From assembly GCA_030390025.1 (NCBI GenBank), contig CM059426.1, positions 27,590,001 through 27,654,000 of the forward strand: a stretch of DNA of 64,000 nucleotides, given 5' to 3'. Below, piece by piece: positions 6,171 through 59,505 of this stretch; the stretch's first letter is position 1; every line of letters starts with the position of its first letter. The DNA comes from Squalus acanthias. Lineage: Eukaryota. Position numbers and translations under genes: made by a program. Below the pieces are notes generated by a model. That model was not told where the DNA came from. It did no database searches and worked only from the letters and a program-made list of their open reading frames with translations.

Positions 6171-7338
6171 CATAAGAACATAAGAAATAGGAGCAGGAGT
6201 CGGCCATTTGGCCTTTTGAGCCTGCTCCGCCATTCAATAAGATCATGGCTGATCTTCTACGTCAGCTCCACTTTCCTGCACTATCCCCATATCCCTTGAT
6301 TCCCTTAATATCCAAAAATCTATCGATCTCTGTCTTGAATATACTCAACGACTGAGCCTTCACAGCCCTCTGGGGTAGAGAATTCCAAAGATTCACCACC
6401 CTCTGAAGGAAGAAATTTCTCCTCATCTCAGTCCTAAATGGCCGACACCTTACTCTGAGACTGTGACCCCTGGTTCTAGACTCGCCAGCCAGGGGAAACA
6501 TCCTCCCTGCAACTACCCTGTCAAGCCCTGTGAGAATTTTATATGTTTCAATGAGATCACCTCTCATTCTTTAAACTCTAGAGAATATAGGCCTAGTCTA
6601 CTCAATCTCTCCTCATAGAACAATCCCCCCATCCCAGGAATCAGTCTGGTGAACCTTCGTTGCACTCCCTCTATGGCAAGTATATCCTTCCTTAGGTAAG
6701 GAGACCAAAACTGTACACAATACTCCAGGTGTGGTCTCACCAGAGCCCTATATAATTGCAGTAAGACGTCTTTACTCCTATACTCCAATCCTCTTGTAAT
6801 AAAGGCCAACATACCATTTGCTTTCCTAATTGCTTGTTGTACCTGCATGTTAACTTTCAGTGATTCGTGTACAAGGACACCCAGGTCCCTCTGAACACTA
6901 ACATTTCCCAAATTCTCACCATTTAAAAAATACTCTGCTTTTCTATTTTTCCTACCAAAGTGGATAACTTCACATTTCTCCACATTATATTCCATTTGCC
7001 ATGTTCTTGCCCACACACTTAGCCTGCCTATATCCCCTTGAAGTCTCCTTGCATCCTCCTCACAACTTACATTCCCACCTAGCTTTGTATCATCAGCAAA
7101 CTTGGATATATGACATTTGGTCACCCCATCCAAATCATTGATATAGATTGTGAATAGCTGAGGCCCAAGCACTGATCCTTGCGGTACCCCACTAGTTCCA
7201 GCCTGCCAACCCGAAAATGACCTATTTATTCCTACTCTTTGTTTTCTGTCTGTTAACTAATCCTCAATTCATGCTAGTATATTACCCCCAATCCCATGAG
7301 CCCTAATTTTGTTTAATAACCTCTTGGTGCGCCACCTT
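6171..7338 (-). mobile_element. CR1 LINE (subfamily ii, HER1-like tail), 3' segment; continues at 9116-9437
   Basis: KFADDTKLGG, RPHLEYCVQFWSPYLRKD; tail CTCCTGCTCCTATTTCTTATGTTCTTATG. Confidence 0.93.
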
Positions 7339-9115
7339 TTTTTATATTCGTTTATGGGATCAGGGCGTCGCTGGCAATGCCAGCATTTATTGCCCATCCC
7401 TAGTTGCCCTTGAGAAGGTGGTGGTGAGCCGCCTTCTTGAACCGCTGCAGTCCGTGTGGTGATGGTACTCCCACAGTGCTGTTAGGTAGGGAGTCCCAGG
7501 ATTTTGACCCAGCGACGACGAAGGATCGGCGATATACTTCTAAGTCAGGATGGTATGTGACTTGGAGGGGAACTTGGAGGTGGTGGTGTTCCCATGCGTC
7601 TGCGGCCCTTATCCTTCTAGGTGGTAGAGGTCGCGGGTTTGGGAGGTGCTGCCGAAGAAGCCTTGGTGAGTTGCTGCAGTGCATCTTGTAGATGGTACAC
7701 ACTGCAGCTACGGTACGCCGGTGGTGGAGGGAGTGAATGTTTAAGGTAGTGGATGGGGTGCCAATCAAGCGGGCTGCTTTGTCCTGGATGGTGTCGAGCT
7801 TCTTGAGTGTTGTTGGAGCTGCACTCATCCAGGCAAGTGGAGAGTATTCCATCACACTCCTTACTTGTGCCTTGTAGATGGTGGATAGGCTTTGGGGAGT
7901 CAGGAGGTGAGACACTCGCCGCAGAATACCTAGCCTCTGACCTGCTCTTGTTGCCACAGTATTTATGTGGCTGGTCCAGTTAAGTTTCTGGTTAACGGTG
8001 ACCCCCAGGATGTTGATGGTGGGGGATTCGGCGATGGTAATGCCATTGAATGTCAAGGGGAGGTGGTTAGACTCTCGCTTGTTGGAAATAGTCATTGCTT
8101 GGCACTTCTGTGGCGCGATGTTATCTGCTACTTATCAGCCCAAGCCTGAATGTCGTCCAGGTCTTGTTGCCTGCGGGCATGGACTGCTTCATTATCTGTG
8201 GAGTTGCGAATGGCGCTGAACACTGTGCAGTCATCAGCGAACATCCCCATTTCTGACCTTATGTTGGAGGGAAGGTCATTGATGAAGCAGCTGAAGATGG
8301 TTGGGCCTAGGGCACTGCCCTGAGGAACTCCTGCAGTGATGTCCTGGGGCTGTGATGATAGACCTTCAACCACCACAACCATCTTCCTGTGTGCTATGTA
8401 TGATTCCAGCCAGTGGAGCATTTTCCCCCTGATTCCCATTGACTTCAGTTTTACTAGGGCTCCTTGATGCCACACTCAGTCAAATGCTGCCTTGATGTCA
8501 AGGGCAGTCACTCTCACCTCACCTCTGGAATTCAGCTCCTTTGTGCATGTTTGGACCAAGGCTGTAATGAGGTCGGGAGCTGAGTGGTCCTGGTGGAACC
8601 CAAACGGGGCATCAGTGAGCAGGTTATTGGTGAGTAAGTGCCGCTTGATAGCACTGTCGATGACACCTTCCATCACTTTGCTGATGATTGAGAGTAGACT
8701 GATGGGGCGGTAATTGGCCGGGTTGGATTTGTCCTGCTTTTTGTGGACAGGACATACCTGGGCAATTTTCCACATTGTCGGATAGATGCCAGTGTTGTAG
8801 CTGTACTGGAACAGCTTGGCTAGATGTGCGGCTAGTTCTGGAGCACAAGTCTTCAGCACGATAGCCGGGATGTTGTTGGGGCCCATAGCCTTTGCTGTAT
8901 CCAGTGCGCTCAGCCGTTTCTTGATATCACGTGGAGTGAATCTGAATTGGCTGAAGACTGGCTTCTGTGATGGTGGGGACCTCGGGAGTAGGCCAATATG
9001 GATCATCCACTCGGCACTTCTGGCTGAAATTGGTTGCAACGCTTCAGCCTTGTCTTTTGCACTCACATGCTGGGCTCCACCATCATTGAGGATGGGGATA
9101 TTCTTGGAGCCTCCT
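7337..9115 (-). mobile_element. LINE-A, 5'-truncated, nested in CR1
   Basis: ORFs 8476-9066, 8128-8475, 7400-8095 form one RT (NYRPISLLS, ALDIKAAFD, GVPQGS, MFADDC) broken by stops; A-rich tail near 7337-7345. Confidence 0.93.
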
Positions 9116-19719: not shown

Positions 19720-20863
19720 AGCAGGAGTTTCTGGTAGGTTTTTTTTTTCAGCGCAACTTGCCCGATATCGGTCAATCTAGCGCAAAAGATCGCGGAATTT
19801 AAACGCAAATCGAGGTTCCGCGATCTTTGCACTAGTTTAAAAAAAAAACAGCGCACTAGAAGCTGGCCCTGCCCCCAAAGCAAGACCGAATTAAGCGCCA
19901 TTGCTAGTTTCCGCTAATTGTATTAGATTGTGGACCTTCGAGCAGGCTCTAAAAATTAAGCTTTTTTTAGGCGCGAGGACACTAATAGGCATGTTTTAAA
20001 AGCTTTTGAACATAACTTTTTAAAAATTTACTCGGAAACTGACTACTGTACGCCAATATAACTAGCAAATGGTTCTGTATAGTTTTTTTTAGTCACTTTC
20101 GGTTATTTAAAATTGGGTTACTCACAGGTGGTGGACTAGACACTCCAATTGAAATGCTTATTTTTTGTGATAAGCCCATTTTCAGCTGTATTAGTCAAAC
20201 TTGCACCAATTTACCACTCTTAAATATAACGAGGAATATTTTTTAAAGCAAAAACATCAAAAAAATTACATTCTGAAACACTGCCCAATTGCACTGGTTC
20301 TTTTTTTTATTCGTTTACGGGATGTGGGCGTCGCTGGCAATGCCAGCATTTATTGCCCATCCCTAATTGCCCTTGAGAAGGTGGTGGTGAGCCGCCGCCT
20401 TGAACCGCTGCAGTCCGTGTGGTGAAGGTACTCCCACAGTGCTGTTAGGGAGGGAGTTCTAGGATTTTGACCCAGCGACGATAAAGGATCGGCGATATAC
20501 TTCTAAGTCAGGATGGTGTGTGACTTGGAGGGGAACCTGGAGGAGGTGGTGTGTTCCCATGCGCCTGCTGCCCTTGTCCTTCTAGGTGGAAGAGGTCGCG
20601 GGTTTGGGAGGTGCTGCCGAAGAAGCCTTGGCGAGTTGCTGCAGTTCATCTTGTAGATGGTACACACTGCAGCCACAGTACACCGGTGGTGGAGGGAGTG
20701 AATGGTTAAGGTGGTGGATGGGGTGCCAATCAAGCGGGCTGCTTTGTCCTGGTTCATGGCAGATTTTGCATTCAGCGATATGCAAATGAGTGAGTGGAAC
20801 CTTGAGGGGAAAAAACACTTCTCAAAACTAGTGCAATTTGCACCCAAAGCGGAAACTCTACCT
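19720..20863. mobile_element. Non-autonomous Harbinger-like element interrupted by LINE-A
   Basis: Imperfect ends GAGCAGGAGTTTCTG and CGGAAACTCTACCTC; CpG-rich subterminal blocks either side of the LINE. Confidence 0.45.
20301..20752 (-). mobile_element. LINE-A 3' fragment with 7-bp TSD
   Basis: QDKAARLIG to tail; CTGGTTC at 20294-20300 and 20749-20755. Confidence 0.9.
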
Positions 20864-21304: not shown

Positions 21305-23122
21305 AACGTGAATGGTGGTGGACCATTGAACAACTAACGGGAGGAGGAGGCTCCATCAATAGCCCCATCCTCAATGGTGATGCAGCCCAGCACATGAGTG
21401 CAAAGGATAAGGCTGAAGCGTTTGCAACCATCTTCAGCCAGAAGTGCCGAGTGGATGATCCATATCGGCCTACTCCTGAAGTCCCCACCATCACAGAAGC
21501 CAGTCCCAATTCGATTCACTTCACGTGATATCAAGAAACGGCTGAGTACACTGGATACAACAAAGGCTATGGGCCCCGTTAACATCCCGGCTATCGTGCT
21601 GAAGACTTGTGCTCCAGAACTAGCCGTACCTTTAGCCAAGCTGTTCCAGTACAGCTACAGCACTGGCATCTATCCGACAATGTGGAAAACTGCCCAGGTA
21701 TGTCCTGTCCACAAAAAGCAGGACAAATCCAATCTGGCCAATTACCGCCCCATCAGTCTACTCTCAATCCTCAGCAAAGTGATGGAAGGTGTCATCGGTA
21801 GTGCTGTCAAGCGGCACTTACTCACCAATAACCTGCTCACTGATGCCCAGTTTGGGTTCCGCCAAGACCACTCGGCTCCCGACCTCATTACAGCCTTGGT
21901 CCAAACATGGACAAAGGAGCTGAATTCCAGAGGTGAGGTGAGAGTGACTGCCCTTGACATCAAGGCAGCATTTGACTGAGTGTGGCATCAAGGAGCCCTA
22001 GTAAAACTGAAGTCAATGGGAATCAGGGGGAAAACTCTCCACTGGCTGGAGTCATACCTAGCACAAAGGAAGATGGTTGTGGTGATTGAAGGTCAATCAT
22101 CACAGCCCCAGGACATCGCTGCATGAGCTCCGGGCAGTGTCCTCGGCCCAACCATCTTCAGCTGCTTCATCAAGGAACTTCCCTCCAACATAAGGTCAGA
22201 AATGGGAATGTTCGCTGATGACTGCACAGTGTTCAGTGCCATTCACAACTCCTCAGCTAATGAAGCAGTCCATGCCCGCAGGCAACAAGACCTGGACGAC
22301 GTTCAGGCATGGGCTGATAAGTGGCAGGTAACATTCGCACCACAGAAATGCCAGGCAATGACTATCTCCAACAAGCGAGAGTCTAACCACCGCCCCTTGA
22401 CATTCAACGGCATTACCATCGCCGAATCCCCTGTCATCAACATCCTGGGGGGGGTCACCATTGACCAGAAACTTAACTGGACCAGCCACATAAATACTGT
22501 GGCAACAAGAGCAGGTCAGAGACTGGGTATTCTGCAGTGAGTGTCTCGCCTCCTGACTCCCTAAAGCCTTTCCACCACCTACAAGGCACAAGTCAGGAAT
22601 GTGATGGAATACTCTCCACTTGCCTGGATGAGTGCAGCTCCAACAACACTCAAGAAGCTCAACACCATCCAGGACAAAGCAGCCCGCTTGATTGGCACCC
22701 CATCCACCACCTTAAACATTCACTCCCTCCACCACCGGCGTACCGTGGCTGCAGTGTGTACCATCTACAAGATGCACTGCAGCAACTCGCCAAGGTTTCT
22801 TTGGCAGCACCTCCCAAACCCGCGACCTCTTCCACCTAGAAGGACAAGGGCAGTAGGCGCCTGGGAACACCACCACCTCCAAGTTCCCCTCCAAGTCACA
22901 TACCATCGAGACTGAGAAGTATATTGCCGTTCCTTCATCGCCGCTGGGTCAAAATCCTGGAACTCCCTCCCAAACAGCACTGTGGGAGTACCTTTACCAC
23001 ACGGACTGCAGCAGTTCAAGAAGGCGGCTCACCACCACCTTCTGAAGGGCAATTAGGGATGGGTAATAAATGCTGGCCTTGCCAGTGACGCCCACATCCA
23101 GAAAAACGATTAAAAAAAAAAA
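21305..23122 (+). mobile_element. LINE-A, 5'-truncated, whole RT region
   Basis: ORFs 21398-21979, 22202-22540, 22601-22915; poly(A) tail at about 23112-23122. Confidence 0.93.
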
Positions 23123-23767
23123 TGACCTTGAAGTGCAGTGACTATTTATGTAGGCAAGCAGCCATTTTACGCACAGCAAAACCCCACAAACAGCTAGTTA
23201 ATCTTTTTTTTTGTGGCAGTTTTGTTTGAAGGAGAAATATTAACAAGGATACTGGGAGAGCTCCTTGCATTTCAAATTGTGATTAGGCATTATCAATGTC
23301 CACCTGAACTACAGGAACAGGCGACTTTAATGGCAGCTCTTGCCTCTACTGCATTGGAGTGTTGATCTAAATGATTTGCTCATATCCTGGTATGGGGCTA
23401 AAACCCATGTTATTACCTGAGCCAAACTGGGATTTCCCAGTGAACTGAAGTTTAGTGCTCGTCACTGTATGCAGGTAATGTCATCAATAGTTGCCCAAGA
23501 GAGTGTGTGCGTGTCTGCTATTTATTAGAAAGGAGATGTGCTGTAGGGTTGTTGGGAAGTCCAGGTAGGTACCCGCTGCAGGAAGCAACAAGTGAGTTTA
23601 TAGTAGGTGTCCAAATGGGATATTATTATCTGTAGAATGTATTCTTTTAGCAGATTAACGCTTTAACATGTCAATAATTAGGTGAAGAGGCAAGCATGAT
23701 TTACGTTCCCAATGTTTCCTTCTGTAACGGCTGAGGTATGGCTCCCACAGCTGTTGGACATTTTCTG

Positions 23768-24593
23768 AAATATAATGTGGATAAATGTGAAGTTATCCAC
23801 TTTGGTAGAAAAAACAGAAAGGCAGAGTATTTCCTAAATGGTGAAAGATTGGGGAATGCAGATGTTCAAAGGGACCTGGGTGTCCTTGTACATGAGTCAC
23901 TGAAAGTGAATGTGCAGGTGCAGCAAGCCATTAGGAAGCCAAATGGTATGCTGGCCTTCATTACAAGAGGATTTGAGTACAGGAGTAAAGAAGTCTTACT
24001 CCAATTATATAGGGCCTTGGTGAGACTACACCTGGAGTGTTGTGTGCAGTTTTGGTCTCCTTACCTCGGGAAGGATGTACTTGCCATGGAGGGAGTGCAA
24101 CGAAGGTTCACGGGATTGATTCCTGGGATGGCAGGACTGTCATATGAGAGGAGATTGAGTGAACTAGACCTGTATTCTCTTGAATTCGGAAGAATGAGAG
24201 GGGATCTCATTGAAGCATGCAGAATTGTTACAGGGCTTGATGATAGGCTGGATGCTGGGAGAATGTTTCCATTGGCTGGGGAGTCTAGAGTCGGGGGCCG
24301 CAGCCTCAGGATGGGGGGTGGGCCATTCGGGACTGGGATGAGAAGAGATTTCTTCACACAGAGGGTGGTGAATCTTTGGAATTCTCTACCCCAGAGGGCG
24401 GTGGAGGCTCAGTCATTGGGTATATTCAAAACAGAAGTCGCTAGATTTCTGACTAGTAAGGGCATCAAGGGATATGGCGATAGTGCTGGTGAATGGAGTT
24501 GAGGCAGAAGATCAGCCATGATCTCATTGAATGGCGGAGCAGGCTCGAAGGGCCGAATGGCCTACTCCTGCTCCTATTTCTTATGTTCTTATG
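23768..24593 (+). mobile_element. CR1 subfamily ii-like copy with clustered A-to-G changes
   Basis: RT C-terminus and full tail; many R>G, Y>C, I>V, T>A, N>D replacements relative to sibling copies. Confidence 0.92.
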
Positions 24594-27500
24594 GTGCTTT
24601 GCCAAGTGTCCATTCCTCATGTGTGGCAGACTCTTCCATTGTGGGGGGGCAGCACAACCAAGCTCAATCCTGTCCGCATCCAACATCCACACATGACGCT
24701 TGCGGCAGAGGTCTTTGGACAGTGATCAGGAGAGCAAACTGGACGGTTTTCCTCCTTCCCTATCCCTCTTCAATCAATAACGATGGATTTATTAGTGCAT
24801 ATATTTTTTAGCAGACTATTTCCAGTGCAGCTGCAGGCAGGTTAAGTGCTAGTTACTCTGCTGTCTGATATGGATTCAGAATGCTTGTTTTAAATATTCC
24901 CCAAGTGAAAAATAGTTCTTCAGATGTGGTATTTCTAATTTTTAATTACTTAATGGATGTAGTATTACCACATGTGGTATAAACAGAAATTATTGTACTG
25001 TTTATTTTCCCACATTACTGACGTCTGAGGTGACCGTGTTGTTATTGGCAAAATGGTAATCTAGATTTGGGTCGGGAAGATGCGTAACGTGGACAGTTAA
25101 GGTAGCTGGGGGTTGAAGAGTTATCAGGAAATGAATTTGTAATTTCCATTAATCAGGCCTTACATAGCAATGACTTAGAGGAACCTCATTGTATTTTTCA
25201 CTACCAGCTCAAATTTGCACCTAGTTTTGCCTCAAGTGTTGACAGATTTTTTTGCTATTCTTCTGCTTGTCCAACCTTTCTGGACCTGATAGAGGACTAA
25301 GGAATATATTTGTGTCTAAATGCTGTACGTGTTGTACTGAGCTGCAAAGAACAGAAGGTCCAGGTTTGTATTCAATCTGTGTCGTTAGCTGAGATCAGCT
25401 GGGGCCGCAGTTGGCCTTGGTGGACCCTGGGCTGGGGAGGAGAAAATTCAGGCAGGGTTTCCAGTCACTGCTGCTGGTAAGTGCTTGTGTGTGTATTGGT
25501 TGTGATAACCTCCAGTCAAATCACCTGCTGAAGCTCGCTGTTCAGCCTTGTGCATGATAAATGGCCACTCGGGAGAGGTACCCCAGCATGAGTGGGGGAT
25601 TGGGACAAGATCGAGGGGAGAAAATTGAAAAATAGAAAAACTGGGGCTAAAGCTTTAATACTGTATAATCACATCTATCACACAATCAATTATATTCTGA
25701 AAGCCTTGGATTGTTTACCTGCCAAATCCGATCTTGGGACTGTTAACTGAAATATTCTGTAACTGAAGTAAGTAGCAGTTCCAGTAAACAATACCTATTA
25801 ATATTAACTCCTCCCTCCTCTCACTGCAGTAAACAGTACTTGATAGCAAACTGTATTTTATATTGAATGGATTACTCATGTATCCGGAAATGTCCAACAG
25901 TTAATGTTGATTTGCCGAGAATGCGACCAACCCATTCCTGTTTAACTGTTTGTGGTCTCATTGAGGAGCGCTACATAATCAGACCATTCGCACTGTCACA
26001 ATCACCTCTTCGGGCCCACCGAACAGATTTTTGCCTTTTTATGTATGTACTTCCAATTGACAAATGATAGGAGTACAGTCCACTTCTGATCTGATAATTC
26101 TATTTTGTTCTTAAAAAAAAATTAAATTTTTCAATAATTCAAATTAACCAATACAAAGAACACAGCAAAAAATGTCATATCAGATCATTTGAATTCAGCA
26201 ACATTGAATTAAGGAATAGATAATTTATTAGGGATGATGGTGTTATTTCTTGATCAGAGTGCATTATATAATCTTTATTCAGAAGAGATATATCTATTAA
26301 TACTGTGTGATGTTGTATAATAGTGTTGTGCCTATTAACAGGAATGTTGTATAATAACTACAAGGGTGTTTCACTTGAACAGTGTGCACGAAATGTATCC
26401 CTGATTGTTGGACCGTAATAACACTTTTCATTATTATCTATGAGTGTTACACCACTGACATGTTGTAATAATGTGTAGGAGCCATGATATTTTCCAGCAC
26501 CAGCCAGTAAAACAAGTTCTGATAATCAGTTCTAGTCTACTTGCGTGAGTCCAGACAGTGAGTATTAGCAGATGATGAGAGCCATCATAATTGGCTCAGA
26601 TTCTGTATTCACTCAAATCCACACATTATGTACTTTCTAGCAGGAGTCGCTCAATAGCAATCAGGAGTAGGAAGCCTGTCTGATTTTTATCCCTTGTCCG
26701 TAGACACTAGTGACATTTGTCTTCACTGAAAAGTACTGCAGATTGAACTAGGGCCCTTCCAAGTCTATGTGGCTCAATACTGCAACAATCCATTACATAG
26801 CGGACAGTGCAAGTCTATGGTATGAGGACTCTGGAGGCAAGTGACATCTCAGTGAATACACTGCATAATGTACGTAAAGTCAACAAGGATATCTCATCTG
26901 ATGGTAAACAGGATACAGCTGTGCCTGGTGTCCGTGCTTCAGAAATCCAGGAAGGTGGGAGAAGGAAGAGAGAAAATGAACACATTTGAATGGTTCAAGC
27001 CTCAGTTTTCTCGTCTTAATGGTAGGCGTTAAGAAAGCCTCTGATTAGTTATCTGCTGGAGTGGTTACAGCAGAAGCATGGTGTTGGTTTCACAGTGGCA
27101 CTGATAACTCCGATAATCTGCCAGCGTTCAGTGTTTATGCTTGCACATGAAGAATGGCCACTTGGGTGAGCTACTCGCAGGCTTGCCAATTCTCTGATTT
27201 GGCAGGAAATCGTGATCTTGTTGTGCCTGAGAATCGAGGTGTCATGTTTTCTGGAATTTCTTTCTCCTTCTCACTAGAGGATGAGAGAATGCAAAGATAG
27301 CAGGGCTATCTCAGCAGTTATGTTAGTAAAAGATATGTATTAAAACTAAAGATGTTTTAGTGTTTGTGGAGAGCTTTCACTGTTCTTGACCAAGAACTAT
27401 GGTGGCCTGGCTGCCTCCTGAAGGCCTCCTCCATCTCTCCATGTGGCAATTGCAGTGGTTTTATATTACTAGCCCTTCTTTCTGACAATATAAAACTGCT

Positions 27501-58603: not shown

Positions 58604-59505
58604 TTCCACGTGATATCAAGAAACGGCTGAGCGCACTGGATACAGCAAAGGCTATGGGCCCCGACAACATGCCGGCTATCGTGCTGAAGACTTGTGCTTC
58701 AGAACTAGCTGCACCTCTAGCCAAGCTGTTCCAGTACAGCTACAACACTTGCATCTATCCGACAATGTGGAAAACTGCCCAGGTATGACCTGTCCAGAAA
58801 AAGCAGGACAAATCCAATCCGGCCAATTACTGCCCCATCAGTCTTCTCTCAATCATCAGCAAAGTGATGGAAGGTGTCATCGACAGTGCTATCAAGCAGC
58901 ACTTACTCACCAATAACCTGCTCACTGATGCCCAGTTTGGGTTCCGCCAAGATCACTTGGCTCCAGACCTCATTACAGCCTTGGTCCAAACATGGACAAA
59001 GGAGCTGAATTCCAGAGGTGAGGTGAGAGTGACTGCCCTTGACATCAAGGCAGCATTTGACCAAGCGTGGCATCAAGGAGCCCTAGTAAAACTGAAGTCA
59101 ATGGGAATCGGGGAAAACGCTCCATTGGCTGGAGTCATACCTAGCACAAAGGAAGATGGTTGTGGTGATTGAAGGTCAATCATCACAGCCCCAGGACATC
59201 GCTGCAGGAGTTCCTCAGGGCAGTGTCCTAGGCCCAACCATCTTCAGCTGCTTCATCAATGACCTTCCCTCTAACATAAGGTCAGAAATGGGGATGTTCG
59301 CTGATGACTGCACAGTGTTCAGCGCCATTCACAACTCCTCAGATAATGAAGCAGTCCATGCCCGCATGCAACAAGACCTGGATGACGTTCAAGCTTGAGC
59401 TGATAAGCGGCAGGTAACATTCGTGCCACAGGAGTGCCAGGCAATGACTATCTCCAACAAGCAAGAGTCTAACCACCTCCCCTTGACATTCAACGGCATT
59501 ACCAT
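58604..59505 (+). mobile_element. LINE-A RT segment (continuation of the 53840 copy), 3'-truncated
   Basis: PRDIKKRLSALDTAKAMGPD, ALDIKAAFD, GVPQGSVLGP, MFADDC. Confidence 0.9.

Follow-up and report, generated by a model that had tools for sequence, protein, structure and literature searches.

The passage of an edited RNA back into DNA has already been observed in cultured cells, since a preprint reports that 3 of 235 new L1-made pseudogene insertions bear clustered ADAR-type changes, only within inverted Alus (PMC11702581). These human substitutions are of one type, and they are ascribed there to ADAR acting on the template RNA ahead of its target-primed reverse transcription; the inverted Alus that carry them belong to host mRNAs, the cells are somatic, and the duplex is visible. 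Dense A>G changes in repeats are also known from ADAR hyper-edited RNA clusters (PMC4365171, PMC3197674), which are differences between RNA and DNA, and these sources and a further one (PMC8586724) give the same ADAR motif, in which G is depleted 5′ and enriched 3′ of the edited A. ADAR-linked A>G hypermutation has been described in avian retroviruses and in HTLV-2/STLV-3, as summarised in PMC8586724, these being exogenous viruses. APOBEC-edited retroelements, with sense G>A scars made on the cDNA of LTR elements, are fixed in vertebrate genomes according to an LTR-only screen in which the non-LTR elements were set aside (PMC4866542). With regard to the restriction of L1 by ADAR1, one review describes it as mainly editing-independent and based on binding (PMC5974252), and another source as both editing-dependent and editing-independent (PMC6035798). 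The literature searched, outside which most subscription journals lie, yielded no account of ADAR-edited LINE copies fixed in the germ line.

The locus described here lies in a window of 64,000 nucleotides of the genome of Squalus acanthias, whose positions are used throughout, and its tract of A>G changes is real, of a recurrent kind, and most likely the footprint of ADAR made heritable, which would make it kin to the deaminase-scarred retrocopies. With the human L1 insertions it shares the clustering of a single type of substitution, attributable to editing of the template RNA, and a similar rarity, but here the changes are in the body of a CR1-type LINE, are fixed in the germ line and old (~2% divergence), and the duplex partner would have been outside the insertion. 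As in the hyper-edited RNA clusters, dense A>G is found in a repeat with G depleted 5′ and enriched 3′, although the tract is known here from DNA alone; as in the viruses, A>G clusters that can be linked to ADAR have survived reverse transcription, but in inherited genomic non-LTR elements; and as in the APOBEC-edited retroelements, a deaminase would have left scars that are fixed in rare copies and visible against the family members, whereas the scar is in this case a sense A>G, in a LINE, presumably made on RNA.

We take the element that carries the tract (the index copy) to be a CR1-type LINE, on the basis of its anatomy and motifs. Elements of the CR1 group typically show 5′ truncation, and a short 3′ tandem repeat instead of poly-A. 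The copies of the present subfamily likewise vary in their 5′ ends, share the 3′ end and have 8-bp terminal repeats. The parts of the index copy are as follows:

23766..24593, plus strand: index copy, a dead and 5′-truncated CR1-type LINE of 0.83 kb (3′ part of ORF2 and 3′ UTR), with an identity to its subfamily of 92–95%
23768..24502, plus strand: C-terminal remnant of ORF2, 244 open codons up to the natural stop
24578..24593, plus strand: two 8-bp terminal repeats at the end of the element, with no poly-A, as read in the sequence

A Pfam search of the ORF2 remnant gave no hit, and the RVT_1 domain (E=4.8e-10) was found upstream in a longer sibling (L092), in a frame continuous with that of the index copy. 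A target-site duplication was sought at the index copy and none was found. The subfamily comprises at least 5,279 copies, counted as exact matches to a 28-mer in the 3.7 Gb genome, with a mean divergence of 2.1% among 30 copies chosen on the 28-mer motif alone; for sharks and rays, one source puts CR1-group DNA at 22–34% (PMC13343379). The window also holds a second young LINE family (7337-9115, 21345-23120, 58605-59505, 20298-20752 and 261-1049), 89–94% identical between copies, some of which are inverted relative to each other, 12 kb apart.

The preliminary description of this stretch had compared the index copy with siblings within the window; these, however, belong to other subfamilies and are 74–85% identical to it, against 92–95% for its own subfamily, and they were rejected as a reference, being too distant and generating false sites. 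The reference used here is the per-column majority of 55 close siblings (57 loci, from which L002, the local duplicate, and a further duplicate locus were removed), against which the index copy shows 39 substitutions, of which 23 are A>G and none is T>C, the others being 5 C>T, 4 G>A and 7 transversions, so that the sense-strand A>G excess claimed at the outset is confirmed against the copy's own subfamily:

24039..24347, plus strand: A>G hypermutation tract, with 23 A>G on the sense strand and no T>C against the 55-sibling majority
24039, 24046, 24049, 24068, 24077, 24088, 24113, 24150, 24161, 24188, 24219 and 24222, plus strand: A>G sites 1–12
24227, 24290, 24293, 24300, 24313, 24314, 24315, 24320, 24329, 24336 and 24347, plus strand: A>G sites 13–23
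24238..24240, plus strand: 3-bp in-frame insertion (local duplication) within the tract, common to the index copy and L002

The 23 changes affect 23 of the 89 As within these 309 bp and none of the 151 As outside, a compactness matched by 0 of 200,000 random placements; no T>C is found at the 75 Ts of the tract (binomial p=1.2e-6 for the strand asymmetry), and the siblings taken one by one have between 0 and 6 A>G. The polarity is that of A>G, because the older subfamilies carry A at the tract sites. In the frame of ORF2, 21 of the changes are non-synonymous and 2 synonymous. The sense G>A are 4 only, two of them at CpG, and form no cluster of the APOBEC type. The span had been given as 23890-24500, and the tract is narrower because several of the sites then listed are letters of the subfamily and one is a different change: the other replacements stand, but NVQ, SLGI, GEW, the T>A of EACRI and the V of EVA are majority letters of the subfamily, and the D>A of EVA, read as an A>G site, is in fact A>C. 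The proposed bias towards a 5′ T, A or C holds, as changes are found at 9 of 18 As preceded by T, 8 of 21 preceded by A, 4 of 15 preceded by C, and 2 of 35 preceded by G (Fisher p=4e-4), while a preference for a 3′ G is not significant in the index copy alone (10/31, p=0.32). A subfamily consensus that already carried the Gs, or a symmetric excess of T>C, had been named as capable of overturning the reading: the majority of the 55 siblings lacks the 23 Gs, and neither the index copy, with none, nor the genome-wide controls given below show an excess of T>C. The tract also includes three tandem double substitutions (24039-24040, 24067-24068 and 24290-24291) beside the 3-bp duplication.

In the 3.7 Gb of the genome, a three-site pattern of the tract matches only the index copy and L002, and the next-best match to the dense tract, among 40 scored of 2,608, reaches 90%; because of this uniqueness and of the 90% of the best other match, no edited subfamily is to be supposed. 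Other copies were sought with patterns in which one or two A>G were forced and A or G was permitted at the remaining As. The first gave 6 matches (the index copy, L002, L080, L081, L083 and the ordinary copy L082), the second 22 (the same five and 17 ordinary copies), and the third 49, of which 31 were examined, one being hypermutated (L141) and 30 ordinary. The scan for similar clusters that had been proposed thus yields four further independent copies with sense-strand tracts, on three chromosomes, and with the neighbour pattern of ADAR: L080 has 24 A>G and 0 T>C, with just 3 other changes in 351 bp, L081 has 20 and 2, L083 15 and 0, and L141 18 and 1, and all four close with the same 8-bp terminal repeat as the index copy. 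Any two of the five edited copies have at most one non-A>G change in common, and their ends, flanks and tract positions differ, and because of the first of these points and of the different ends and flanks they are to be considered separate events; an edited sub-lineage or a master copy was rejected on the same sharing of changes and on the tract being common only to L002. In L080, L081 and L083 the dense tract begins at one place, 43–44 bases before the 28-mer (equivalent to ~24262 in the window), and two of these copies reach hundreds of bases further 5′ than this start.

Among 30 copies chosen without bias, the maximum is 3 A>G per 150 bp. Mirror-image patterns that forced T>C gave, for the first, 0 matches genome-wide; for the second, no second T>C in 37 matches, 30 of which, scored over their whole length, had no more than 3 per 150 bp; and for the third, a second T>C in 1 of 16 matches, this being an ordinary copy; a further T>C control was uninformative, as a subfamily variant had been forced (601 matches, 100 of them listed). 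Taken together, the 51 examined A>G matches included 4 new hypermutated copies and the 53 T>C matches none (~p=0.05, one-sided, by hand arithmetic), a strand control that is thin at the genome-wide level, the four additional copies having been found with patterns that themselves force A>G. Four events, or three if the index copy is left aside, against 5,279 unedited copies counted at a single site give 0.06–0.08% as a lower bound, and hence A>G tract events are recurrent but rare, affecting roughly 1 in 1,000 subfamily members. In other subfamilies there were 7 matches, of which two look edited (L134 and L132), one has 9 A>G and 6 T>C, and four do not look edited; these candidates were left uncounted, since their nearest-neighbour references are weak and unselected old copies also reach 18 A>G and 4 T>C. 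Moderate A>G excesses against such weak references are seen in the older-subfamily copies L134 (14/3), L132 (15/5), L131 (9/6) and L043:7953-9215 (18/4).

When the five copies are pooled and the 7 sites that had been searched for are excluded, 93 edits remain, which affect 19 of 70 As preceded by T, 36 of 106 preceded by A, 24 of 95 preceded by C and 14 of 164 preceded by G (p=1.4e-7 for the avoidance of a 5′ G); on the 3′ side they affect 47 of 157 As followed by G and 46 of 278 followed by another base (p=0.0015). The pattern persists when the index copy is removed (5′ G 12/129, 3′ G 37/126), and the background A>G of 60 ordinary copies shows neither the depletion of 5′ G nor the enrichment of 3′ G. 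The remaining substitutions are not raised in the tracts (29/1434 inside, 31/1696 outside), and no burst of A>G was found in the flanking repeats (0/62, 4/80, 2/83 and 0/43 As), 4 of the 10 flanks being testable in this way because they are repeats. Judged from base context, the pooled changes fit ADAR, and not Pol eta, APOBEC or GC-biased conversion.

The index copy has itself been copied with part of its surroundings:

23070..24589, plus strand: segment duplicated in inverted orientation ~55 kb downstream as L002 (G000:C2:27669348-27670881, minus strand), with 97.3% identity

This duplicate of 1.5 kb comprises the last 50 bp of the upstream LINE, the edited copy and, between them, 640 bp of unique flank. 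The 23 A>G are all found in it, together with 12 further changes of the index copy, from which it follows that the tract predates the duplication and was assembled twice, and this argues against a local sequencing error. The unique flank is found only at these two loci (40 scored of 345 candidates), and their divergence from each other is not lower within the tract. L002 starts in the upstream LINE, 50 bp short of its end, and stops within the terminal repeat; an AC-rich and then an A-rich stretch come next, and the whole resembles a retrocopy of a read-through RNA, possibly mobilised via the 3′ end of the truncated LINE; no clear target-site duplication was found there. Its private changes are 14, against 4 in the index copy (p=0.03), and 4 of the 14 are A>G (p=0.026 against the background), a weak hint of a second passage through RNA. 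In four public runs searched over 23130-24900, contigs of two other organisms connect the 3′ end of the element to the matching flank, and those of one of them also connect the 5′ end, with a flank divergence of 4–6%; because the junctions are present in two other organisms, the insertion appears to be older than those species splits, the support from the runs being for the junctions only, as over the tract they were swamped by contigs of the family. In the flank, position 24655 is C in the window and T in both runs of organism A and in both other organisms, this C being either a private allele or an assembly error.

As for the duplex that an ADAR would require, the element's own predicted fold has no strong folding within the tract, and the pairing probability is 0.41 for the edited As and 0.46 for the unedited ones (p=0.25); intrinsic RNA structure was therefore rejected as an explanation, edited As being no more paired and the best long-range helix (13 bp) being at chance level. 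This predicted helix, between 24316-24328 and 24555-24567, which are complementary in the subfamily (11-bp perfect match, E=1.4), is absent from the other subfamilies of the window, and edits of L080 and L081 fall near both of its arms. Within 10 kb of the five copies no inverted partner of more than 70% identity over the tract was found, the nearest being a 66% piece adjoining L081, and because no close inverted partner covers any tract it is unlikely that the editing occurred at the present loci. This would fit editing at a donor locus elsewhere. Donors were sought through a common 5′ flank and none was accepted, as the flank of the index copy led only to L002 (40 scored of 345 candidates) and that of L080 belongs to an old repeat, whose best matches lie at 72–81%. 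The position of the tracts in different parts of the copies is what would be expected if the partners had been variably truncated antisense copies.

It is highly probable, in our judgement, that the heritable tracts of sense A>G go back to germ-line retrotransposition of LINE RNA hyperedited by ADAR, as the preliminary description had proposed. What is observed is the tracts, with their strand and base context, their recurrence and their confinement, and it is from these that we infer the enzyme, the timing and the duplex, in a course that could have been: (i) an RNA with the 3′ part of the element would have paired over ~300 nt with an antisense copy, supplied by a separate antisense RNA or by an inverted copy lying in the donor's read-through or host transcript; (ii) an ADAR, to judge from the signature, would have turned about a quarter of the As of this stretch into inosine, avoiding those with a 5′ G and favoring those with a 3′ G; (iii) target-primed reverse transcription starting at the 3′ terminal repeat, with which the anatomy of the copy agrees, would have placed C opposite inosine, as is established chemistry, and in consequence the sense strand of the new copy reads G; (iv) and finally, the copy would have been fixed, its junctions being present in related organisms, and duplicated locally at a later time. 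It is the signature and the anatomy that would point to ADAR as the enzyme and to editing before insertion.

A change at the locus after the insertion, either through an edited transcript that was reverse-transcribed and converted it, or through an adenosine deaminase acting on the sense DNA strand of an RNA:DNA hybrid, is improbable. ADARs are able, as a published study is said to have found, to edit DNA in DNA/RNA hybrids, the neighbour pattern produced would be identical, and germ-line transcription of the index locus is possible, because L002 resembles a copy of its transcript; but at none of the five copies is there a near inverted partner over the tract, all five tracts are on the sense strand although insertions are transcribed either way, and editing of the first-strand cDNA would appear as sense T>C. 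Neither an unedited locus with the index flank (among 40 scored of 345 candidates) nor a lower divergence between the index copy and L002 within the tract has been found, which also speaks against this course of events. Bursts of misincorporation by the LINE reverse transcriptase, for instance with unbalanced dNTP pools or by dislocation beside a G, would account for the confinement to the element and for the single strand, and dislocation could even produce the preference for a 3′ G; we regard them as quite improbable, for they do not predict the strong avoidance of a 5′ G (14/164), 46 of the 93 edits have no 3′ G, the tracts begin and end within the copies, and other types of error are not raised.

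An error-prone DNA polymerase of the Pol eta type, filling a repair tract or the second strand, would leave A>C/G at WA (PMC4686820), and in the index copy the As preceded by W are indeed the most affected (17/39) and three other changes adjoin an A>G. In the pool, however, CA is affected about as often as WA (24/95 and 55/176, p=0.33), and GA far less than CA (p=4e-4), TA accounting for 19 of the 93 edits; the changes are nearly pure A>G (24 of 27 in L080) with almost no A>C, tandem changes are not enriched in the five copies (4/29, p=0.43), and a repair tract would ignore the strand of the element, all of which leaves this origin very improbable. There is equally scant probability that a G-rich subfamily, a subfamily mosaic, GC-biased conversion or an assembly error is the source of the Gs. 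It is true that five of the sites first listed are subfamily letters, and that a few edited sites recur in 6–7 of ~55 siblings, these siblings having been selected for their likeness to the index copy; but the three-site pattern is restricted to the index copy and L002, no other scored tract exceeds the 90% given above, the tract sites are A in the older subfamilies, neither T>C nor any other AT-to-GC change is in excess, contrary to the strand symmetry of conversion, and an assembly error is opposed by the double assembly of the tract. On these sequence comparisons, subfamily origin and conversion can be regarded as refuted as sources of the Gs.

If the retrotransposition of ADAR-edited LINE RNA is the true origin of these tracts, the edited copies would be a source of clustered amino-acid change without stops, as 21 of the 23 changes of the index copy are non-synonymous and its frame is open, and they would inflate the ages of repeats and distort subfamily calls. 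Edited LINE RNA would have been present in the germ line and still competent for integration, and its fossil copies would constitute a purely genomic and datable record of the activity and site preference of ADAR in the germ line, also in lineages with no RNA data; the two-site motif test is cheap and applicable to any genome. The chances seem to us evenly balanced that ADAR-edited retrocopies are a standing and overlooked class in vertebrates, corresponding at the level of RNA to the APOBEC-edited ERVs, with hundreds of LINE copies per genome recording the encounters of germ-line ADAR with LINE dsRNA, and with CR1-type donors that include truncated copies in read-through transcripts mobilised via their 3′ ends. 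A-to-I editing, which is usually deemed transient, would, on the reading favored here, enter heritable DNA through LINE retrotransposition, and would do so at a measurable rate.
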